A DNA stretch of 64,000 nt from assembly GCA_964016885.1 (NCBI GenBank), contig OZ024741.1, forward strand, positions 207,142,001-207,206,000. Reading direction: 5' to 3'. The stretch comes from Eledone cirrhosa. Taxonomy: Eukaryota. The notes under the pieces are model-generated. The model saw only the letters and a program-made list of their open reading frames with translations. It did no database searches and was not told the origin of the DNA. Shown here one piece after another: positions 1,298-3,083 of this stretch (its first letter is position 1; each line of letters starts with the position of its first letter). The position numbers and the translations under genes are program-made.

Positions 1298-2068
1298 TAT
1301 ATATATATATATATGTATGTATGAGTGTATATATATATGTATATATATATATGTATGTGTGTGTATATATATATATATATATATATGTGTGTGTGTATGT
1401 ATGTGTATGTATATATATATATATATATATATATATATGTGCGTATATGTGTGTGTGTATGTGTATGTGTATGTATATGTATGTGTGTATGTATGTATGT
1501 GTGTGTGTATATATATGTATATATATATATATGTGTATGTATATGTGTATGTATGTGTATATATATATATATATATATATATATATATATATATATATAT
1601 ATATATATCTGTGTGTGTGTATGTGTATATATATATATATATGTATATGTGTATATGTATGTATATGTATGTGTGTGTGTGTATGTGTGTATGTGTGTGT
1701 GAACATATATGTATGTGTTTGTGTATGTGTATATATATATATGTATATATATATATATGTGTGTGTGTGTATATGTATGTATATATATATAGAATAGAAT
1801 GAAACGAAATTTTATTTCTCATTCTTATCACGGCACTTACTTAAATGTAATTATGTATGTATGTATACGTACATACATATATGTATACAGACGTACAGTA
1901 GTATGTATATATATACATACATTCACACATATATATATGCACGTATCGGTTTACCGAACATTTATTATAATGCTCGGTTTGTTTGTTTGTAAACAAACAA
2001 AAAGCCTGAATTACGTCGTACATTGTTTAGGCAAGCACGTCACCTTTTTGTTCAACACTGACACAGGA

Positions 2069-2111
2069 ACGATGTACTAGTTTCAAGCTTATTAGCTATC
2101 GTCATCATCGT
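2069..2111 (-). ncRNA. hammerhead ribozyme, family A, mutated core
   Basis: Same fold as 2513-2555 but the core reads ATGACGA (C3 lost). Confidence 0.7.
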
Positions 2112-2512
2112 ATACCTTCCTGCCAGATGGTTGAACGTCTGAAAGTAGATACTTTCCTTATGCATATTAACGGCTGAGCAGCCTAATTTGCATATCGAGT
2201 GAGTTTAGTCGGCCGCGCACACCGAAAACGATAAATGGAATAGAATGAAACGAAATTTCATTTCTCACTCTTAGTACCTCACTTACTTAAATGTAAGTAT
2301 GTATGTATACGTCCATACATATATGTATACAGACGTACAGTAGTATGTATATATATACATACATTCACACATATATATATATGAACGTATCGGTTTACCG
2401 AACATTTATTATAATGCTCGGTTTGTTTGTTTGTAAACAAACAAACAGCCCGAATTACGCCGTACATTGTTTAGGCAACCTCGTCACCTTTTTGTTCAAC
2501 ACTGACACAGGA

Positions 2513-2555
2513 ACGATGTACTAGTTTCAAGCTTATTAGCTATCGTCAGCATCGT
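2513..2555 (-). ncRNA. minimal type I hammerhead ribozyme, family A
   Basis: ACGATG-CTGACGA-TAGCT-AATA-AGCTT-GAAA-CTAG-TA-CATCGT. Confidence 0.9.
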
Positions 2556-2729
2556 ATACCTTCCCGCCAGATGATTGAACGTCTGAAAGTATATACTTTC
2601 CTTATGCATATTAACGGCTGAGCAGCCTAATTTGCATATCGAGTGAGTTAATCGGCCGGGCTGCTCAGCCGTTAATATGCATAAGGAAAGTATATACTTT
2701 CAGACTTCAATCATCTGGCAGGAAGGTAT

Positions 2730-2772
2730 ACGTTGCTGACGATAGTTAATAAGCTTGAAACTAGTACAGCGT
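2730..2772 (+). ncRNA. minimal type I hammerhead ribozyme, family A
   Basis: ACGTTG-CTGACGA-TAGTT-AATA-AGCTT-GAAA-CTAG-TA-CAGCGT; helix I still pairs despite two substitutions. Confidence 0.88.
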
Positions 2773-3083
2773 TCCTTTGTCAGTGTTGAACAAATGAGCA
2801 ACGATGTTTGCTAGACACTGTACGGCTTAATACGGGATGTTTGTTTACAACCACACCGAGCATTATAATAAATGTTCGGTGAATCCATACGTACATATAT
2901 GTATATGTGCATGTATGTATATATATATACATACTACTGTACGTCTGTATACATATATGTATGTACGTATACATACTTATATATATATATATATATATAT
3001 ATATATATATATATATATATATATATATATATATATATATATATATATATATATATATATATATATATATTATATATATATAT

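Follow-up and report, generated by a model that had tools for sequence, protein, structure and literature searches.

The closest described systems are the non-LTR retrozymes of animals and the Penelope-like elements (PLEs). In the available text of their description (Cervera and de la Pena, 2020; PMC7229834), the former are characterized by TSDs that exceed 4 bp when present and by self-cleaving monomer RNAs in both linear and circular form. It has been proposed from co-occurrence and pLTR similarity, in the accessible parts of two studies (PMC7229834; bioRxiv 2026.07.22.740005), that PLEs mobilize the animal retrozymes, and the second of these (Li, Clavereau and Pollet, 2026) argues for a PLE origin and reports that one of nine tested dimers cleaved. 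PLE insertions, as set out in the accessible sections of Craig et al (2021; PMC8557442), consist of 5′-truncated partial tandems with an adjacent inverted 5′-truncated copy and an optional tail, show a bias towards microsatellites and arise by a tandem and inverted insertion mechanism described there as unresolved. In vitro, the Poseidon protein of Anolis cuts and extends both strands at AT-rich DNA; it is predicted to be a dimer, has two internal start sites for reverse transcription within a stem-loop and does not need hammerhead ribozyme (HHR) cleavage (Frangieh et al, 2024; PMC11167929). The minimal HHR of PLEs, according to the available part of PMC4209133, has a helix I of 4-5 bp, a helix II of 7-8 bp and G10.1-C11.1, and the same source states that a canonical type I HHR with a palindromic helix III cuts as a dimer.

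Here we describe family A, an HHR-bearing repeat present at three loci in 64,000 nucleotides of Eledone cirrhosa DNA (the window), of which it occupies about 2,760 bases. In our view it is most likely a non-autonomous PLE (non-LTR retrozyme) that borrows the reverse transcriptase-endonuclease of a PLE to insert its copies into TA-rich DNA. At the first locus the repeat has a period of 444, with 2.0 copies and 93% matches across 1785-2658, which bears out the unit of about 444 bp given in an earlier note on this DNA. The same note had called the unit non-coding, and this stands: when it is circularized, the longest stop-to-stop frame spans 63 aa in sense and 75 aa in antisense. Its GC content is 0.367 (37%). 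No tRNA gene occurs anywhere in the window, the A box is absent from family A and a single B-box-like heptamer was put down to chance. The unit folds better than its shuffles (z = -6.85; 0 of 100 shuffles as good), and folded as a circle it gives a z of about -6.5.

Matches in sequencing runs suggest that such units are abundant. On a 428-nt stretch of family A we found 79,398 of the 12,467,656 reads of a RAD run with the same species label, 14,629 contigs of run X1 and a count of 802 for run X4 (a second organism); these numbers support a high copy number, as distinct from giving a copy count. There was no RNA run among the matches listed, and X17, whose RNA status is a guess, covers the microsatellite part only. 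Among the literature matches listed for octopus or cephalopod hammerhead ribozymes, Penelope and retrozymes, none describes family A, although an annotation in a repeat database (Repbase or Dfam) may already exist.

Six HHR copies were located by a structure scan and a sliding match:

2069-2111, minus strand: HHR copy of locus 1, core change ATGACGA, predicted cut after 2075
2513-2555, minus strand: HHR copy of locus 1, intact CTGACGA, predicted cut after 2519
2730-2772, plus strand: HHR copy of locus 1, intact core, helix I U.G variant
28748-28790, minus strand: HHR copy of locus 2, intact core, helix I G.U variant
48386-48428, minus strand: HHR copy of locus 3, intact core, GUU triplet
48725-48767, plus strand: HHR copy of locus 3, core change CTGACAA

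The number of copies, the intact core in four of the six and a helix I variant that stays paired (ACGTTG/CAGCGT, with U.G replacing A-U) had all been noticed before and are confirmed. A relaxed HHR scan gave 13 matches in the window and 0-2 in each of 30 shuffles; an Rfam gathering scan gave 0, and the exact HHR pattern had 0 matches each in viral, prokaryote genome and metagenome contigs. Judged from the sequence, the architecture is canonical type I, with a helix I of 6 bp followed by an internal loop and a distal stem, a helix II of four positions closed by a six-base loop, and a helix III of 2 bp inside a palindrome whose self-pairing is predicted at -6.8 kcal/mol. The label of a minimal PLE-type HHR was dropped on account of these helices I and II, the latter with U.U in place of the usual G10.1-C11.1 in 6/6 family A copies. 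Because of this U.U the predicted activity may be low, and the family A HHR, although predicted to cut itself, may be weak or dead.

Comparison with a sister family, B, allowed the pairing to be assessed. The HHRs of the two families align without gaps over 67 columns; among seven sequences 94.3% of cells are paired and both sides are altered in 6 of 15 pairs, a result that none of 500 shuffles reached (slid controls ≤2). Five of these six double changes come only from the single family B sequence. The 40 variants listed from the runs (163 rows in all) include four in the HHR, at N7, in loop II and on both sides of one helix I pair, and none in the core against 0.86 expected, which is not significant alone. 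Of the three runs that cover the helix I variant pair, two show its sides at matched frequencies, 50% and 46% in X1 and 53% and 51%, and 5% and 6%, in X21, whereas X4 does not (53% vs 21%). An HHR no better conserved than its flanks, which had been named beforehand as counting against a retroelement, was not what we found: in the window copies, 8 of 258 letters differ from the column majority within the HHR (3.1%) and 110 of 1608 elsewhere (6.8%; p = 0.02, the copies not being independent).

To describe the insertions, unit position 1 was set to the first nucleotide after the predicted HHR cut. Only six arms were mapped end to end:

1791..2658, minus strand: arm L1a, 1.96 tandem units, unit ~301-304 to 282; 3′ end at a TA-rich microsatellite; subfamily 'A1'
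2659..2978, plus strand: arm L1b, inverted and 5′-truncated, unit 336 to ~222; a different subfamily; 3′ end at (TA)n
28545..29120, minus strand: arm L2, spanning unit 62 to ~222 over 1.36 units, with (TA)n at its 3′ end
47805..48040, plus strand: arm L3a, unit ~37-39 to 281-282, without an HHR; 3′ end at (TC)n(TA)n
48137..48620, minus strand: arm L3b, from unit 215 to ~170; its internal TA tract (48139-48266) is expanded
48622..49027, plus strand: arm L3c, unit 304 to 281; 3′ end at (TA)n

Two of the three loci contain head-to-head inversions (1791-2978 and 48267-49027) whose 3′ ends point outward, L1a and L1b overlapping by 3 nt and L3b and L3c, which belong to one subfamily, by 2 nt. The 5′ starts are scattered over the unit (~301, 336, 62, ~39, 215 and 304). 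The 3′ ends (282, ~222, ~222, 281, ~170 and 281) cluster at two sites 60-67 nt apart; five of the six abut (TA)n or (TC)n(TA)n, and the remaining one enters another repeat. No arm ends at the HHR cut site. Among the Logan contigs of X1, from the same species, 58 pass at 28909 (unit ~288), and 40 at 29046 (unit ~146), from the unit to TA-type sequence, within 22 of the 643 loose-end rows. The largest pile-ups in the RAD data of X21, with 27,531 loose ends at 28929-28931 and with reads beginning or ending at 29035, 28864-28867 and 28934, were considered as element ends and rejected as restriction-digest ends, since they coincide with CATG and AATT sites. Three opposite-strand joints in X21 were set aside as too weak, with 59-63 reads and 1-2 starts apiece, and TA microhomology at the 3′ ends (0-3 nt) is indistinguishable from chance in AT-rich DNA.

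Truncation at the 5′ side, clustered 3′ ends at (TA)n and head-to-head pairs together form a PLE insertion signature. Inverted symmetry and TA flanks would also be expected of a TA-targeting DNA transposon (MITE), or of a satellite spread by recombination, in which the inverted arms were TIRs or rearrangements and the HHR was incidental; a target duplication is possible too, unreadable as it would be within (TA)n flanks. A MITE has fixed ends with TIRs, but in family A the paired outer ends lie at differing unit positions (282 vs 222), the inner junctions vary by locus, an inverted arm is missing from locus 2 and the arms are fractional in length; moreover, the HHR structure is retained between the otherwise diverged families A and B. 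The variable, non-mirror ends largely refute this explanation, which we regard as highly improbable. They also differ from the fixed TIR ends that the earlier note had named as the mark of a DNA transposon, and its description of a high-copy non-autonomous retroelement is supported by these ends, by the read and contig counts and by the conserved HHR. Its other claims on anatomy held in part. Short multimers are present in the tandems of 1.96 and 1.36 units, but these are the only two of six arms longer than one unit and two of three loci are head-to-head inversions. Embedding in (TA)n holds for five of the six 3′ ends but not for the 5′ sides of L2, which adjoins a PLE relic, and L3a, which adjoins an HHR-like family. 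Array ends scatter at the 5′ side, whereas at the 3′ side they cluster and are not freely permuted.

The relation of the two arms of each pair was examined through their variants. At locus 1, both passes of L1a differ from L1b by 11 substitutions and 2 indels at which L1b matches the other loci, one site showing the opposite. Seven of the L1b states and three of the L1a states are among the 40 listed X1 variants (163 rows in all), at 6-69%. Since the states of both arms recur as listed variants, their differences predate the insertion, and locus 1 joins arms from two genome-wide subfamilies. In contrast, the paired arms of locus 3 have six locus-specific states in common with 0 conflicts, and the arms of family B are 99.4-99.8% identical, so that two templates are indicated in only one of three same-family head-to-head pairs. 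Within L1a the two passes differ at 17 of 327 sites; their private changes are lopsided (3 vs 13, p = 0.02) and one of the differences is a common X1 variant (unit 389, 38%), for which reasons the passes were probably not twins at insertion. A haplotype switch near the HHR cut in L1a (unit 398 to 11) was considered, but the sites were too few and the claim was dropped.

These observations bear on the earlier proposal that a single self-cleaved, ligated circular RNA was rolled around by reverse transcriptase to give circularly permuted short multimers. The scattered 5′ starts, the two arms longer than one unit, a haplotype that stays the same across the cut site in the locus 3 arms and the stable fold of the unit as a circle all fit such a template, and the available text of PMC7229834 demonstrates circular retrozyme RNAs in coral, mussel and axolotl. 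In each of the six HHRs the sequence continues unbroken through the cut site, which fits an uncut multimer as well as it does a ligated circle. However, rolling around one circle yields no inverted arms, which need two primed strands, and could not have produced the two-subfamily arms of locus 1; it also sits poorly with the clustered 3′ ends and with L1a passes that were probably unlike from the start, and the PLE protein used unprocessed RNA in vitro (PMC11167929). As a full account the circle is thus unlikely, although circular RNA may have been the template of single arms. PLE-type internal priming explains more of the anatomy.

At three joins there is no TA spacer: a coding PLE relic runs by its 3′ end into the 5′ end of L2, the family D repeat at 47560-47806 stands head-to-head with L3a, and L3b runs on into a 52-nt family D piece at 48085-48136. 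One reading of these heterologous joins (C-A, D-A and A-D′) is template switching; they could instead be nested or adjacent insertions from which the TA target was lost. The relic that adjoins L2 is as follows:

29146..31600, minus strand: coding PLE relic, 5′-truncated, with a linker and GIY-YIG part at 30851-31540 and an AT-rich 3′ region

It carries its own HHR of a family C at 29186-29250. Pfam detected no domain in the ORF piece at 30824-31549 linked to it, and this piece is 35-38% identical to four proteins of 528-745 aa, on which its identity as a PLE rests. The four homologues, which Pfam left without a label, are presumably Penelope/Poseidon-like, with RT and GIY-YIG motifs.

Many PLE relics lie within the window. 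A further alternative is that the family A pieces are 5′-truncated pLTR ends of an autonomous PLE and no independent element. Most PLE copies are 5′-truncated and many HHRs of animal genomes are remnants of this kind, according to the available part of PMC4209133, and families C, E and G in the window look so, with three C-type HHRs standing 1.0-1.6 kb behind PLE ORF relics. Family A is different: at 3/3 loci the unit is preceded by its own 3′ part, the three arms that reach upstream past the long 3′-end site looping back into the unit and not into an ORF, and the same holds for family B. No ORF exceeds 75 aa, no foreign upstream flank dominates within 22 of the 643 loose-end rows, and an HHR with a 6-bp helix I, a distal stem and a 4-bp helix II is unlike the minimal HHR of PLEs. 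We therefore think it quite unlikely that family A is composed of pLTR remnants, and return to the reading of a non-autonomous element copied by a PLE enzyme.

Other repeats in the window were recorded alongside. The truncated coding PLE relics at 29146-31600 (minus), 32000-34640 (plus) and 35180-37640 (plus) each end in a C-type HHR, with the octamer described below on the strand opposite the HHR in two of the three. In a further coding PLE relic, at 56487-58271, a broken C-terminal GIY-YIG piece is flanked by inverted arms of 625 bp that are 96.5% identical, the same inverted-arm form as in the family A loci; the HHR scans found no HHR in this relic. At 44375-45889 (plus) lies a PLE-type RT relic (RVT_1) whose homologues have RT and GIY-YIG domains. 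The short HHR family G (3086-3223, minus; 39997-40134, plus; 13339-13400) has 3′ ends at (TA)n, one copy having its (TA)n tract in common with locus 1. HHR family E occurs at 38746-39030, 41097-41360 and 47047-47385, the 47 kb copy being a head-to-head pair between microsatellites. Family D (47560-47806 and 48085-48136, both minus) has a degenerate HHR-like motif, and its second piece begins at about the predicted cut. Long palindromic repeats by (TA)n at 39059-39431 and 41406-41836 are possibly a further head-to-head family. The stretches 37838-39404 and 40243-41809 form a near-identical duplication with a 2.4-kb period (98-100% in aligned blocks), either a recent tandem duplication or a haplotype duplication of the assembly. 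The window also contains a broken LINE at 4488-9763 (plus; endonuclease, RT and zf-RVT domains), a broken Helitron at 15020-19584 (plus; Helitron_like_N, PIF1) in which positions 15067-15362 form a coding tandem repeat of 69 bp, and, at 10137-10503, a small inverted-repeat element repeated in tandem (113-143 bp) with (TA)n between.

The same anatomy is seen in family B:

54835..56222, no strand assigned: family B, 468-nt unit, an inverted arm plus a tandem of 2.09 units, each with its 3′ end at (TA)n

Families A and B are collinear homologues (local score 201; maximum of 200 shuffles 74). Family B is young. Its three HHRs are identical and have the canonical G-C in helix II, its unit folds as a circle with z -10.7, and its tandem and inverted arm join at a 29-nt palindrome. 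Its 3′ ends, at unit 235 and 304, are 69 nt apart, match the sites of family A and flank a conserved hairpin, the homologue of which in family A lies between both preferred 3′-end sites:

2236..2275, minus strand: predicted hairpin between the two preferred 3′-end sites

We regard this modelled hairpin as a candidate start signal for reverse transcription. The two families also have in common a conserved block that contains an octamer:

2630..2637, minus strand: octamer ATGCAAAT within the block conserved between A and B; further copies at 2186, 28865, 48503 and 48643

In both families the octamer stands 78-90 nt upstream of the HHR core, near both C HHRs it is on the opposite strand (at 29344 in the relic beside L2), and 10 of the 12 octamers in the window fall in families A, B and C. 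A combined pattern of octamer and HHR had 6 matches in the window and a mean of 0.00 in 100 shuffles. The block shows 3 differences in 157 letters and, over 32 nt, none of the 40 listed variants (163 rows in all; 2.5 expected, P = 0.07). These features make the octamer a candidate internal promoter element. Newt satellite 2 is a tandem HHR repeat for which an internal snRNA-type promoter that includes an octamer has been reported, and by this analogy one might guess at an snRNA-type internal promoter in family A; no proximal sequence element was identified there. In metagenomes a gapped octamer and HHR pattern gave 14 loci, none like A or B by blastn; 12 appeared chance-like, and the other two, which represent one motif (L002:523-649, minus; L007:3001-3127, plus), have a well-formed type I HHR-like motif with 5-bp helices I and II and an upstream octamer.

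Taking these features together, insertion by a PLE enzyme might proceed as follows. Transcription of tandem copies, perhaps starting in the block with the octamer, would yield multimers. The HHR, with its palindromic helix III, would cleave only as a dimer and probably weakly, and the monomers may be ligated into circles. A PLE protein, probably dimeric, would nick both strands of self-complementary (TA)n and prime reverse transcription on each, starting within the RNA on either side of the hairpin (unit ~222 or ~282-288). Each cDNA, with either a circle or an uncut multimer as its template, would extend 0.5-2 units and continue through the HHR site, and the two cDNAs would be joined through 2-3 nt of microhomology to give a head-to-head insertion, the arms of which could derive from different RNAs. 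No helper PLE having sequence in common with family A was found in the 64 kb. We tentatively extend this scheme, in a form that we rate a little below an even chance: a dimeric PLE enzyme would load two RNAs and prime both strands of cut (TA)n, such that insertions were stitched from two A subfamilies, from A and another HHR family or from A and a coding PLE, and A and B would be an old retrozyme lineage with its own snRNA-type octamer promoter and hairpin signal for the start of reverse transcription. If true, this lineage would be a near-minimal natural PLE substrate, and PLE mobilization of animal retrozymes would become directly testable. Family A supplies a short non-coding RNA for the existing in vitro PLE assay. 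A retrozyme with a canonical-type HHR and a PLE insertion signature provides genomic evidence for that proposed mobilization, and the two-subfamily inverted pair supports two separately primed templates.

The class of element is already known, and our result is a confirmation with mechanistic leads (two-template insertion and the octamer block), not a new system. From its sequence, family A falls within the non-LTR retrozymes as these are delimited in the available text of PMC7229834. In common with them, so far as the accessible parts of two accounts describe (PMC7229834; bioRxiv 10.64898/2026.07.22.740005), it has a non-coding tandem unit (150-450 bp), a canonical-type I HHR with palindromic helix III, low GC (<50%; 37% in A), high copy number, a strong fold and coexistence with PLEs. 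It differs in its arms of 0.5-2 units with PLE-type inverted partners at (TA)n (the words 'inverted' and 'microsatellite' have 0 matches in PMC7229834), in the U.U at 10.1-11.1 and in the octamer block. By a further retrozyme criterion family B fits and none of the A loci does, the sole same-strand HHR pair having one mutated core, in a sample of three A loci only. The non-autonomous elements of Chlamys, such as MRC1, are, in the available part of PMC8557442, likewise non-coding PLE derivatives that form pLTRs and head-to-tail copies; unlike family A, they are green algal and belong to a clade described there as lacking canonical HHRs. Compared with EN+ PLEs, as portrayed in the available sources, family A has no RT-GIY-YIG ORF, such as an autonomous PLE carries between its pLTRs, but loops back into its own unit at 3/3 loci, and its ends are 60-67 nt apart (69 in B) as against a published tail of 30-40 bp. 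It resembles those elements in its partial tandems with 5′ truncation, in an adjacent inverted 5′-truncated copy (2/3 loci, and family B), in AT-rich or microsatellite targets (5/6 arms), in a type I HHR and, the wider end spacing apart, in two alternative 3′ ends around a predicted stem-loop.
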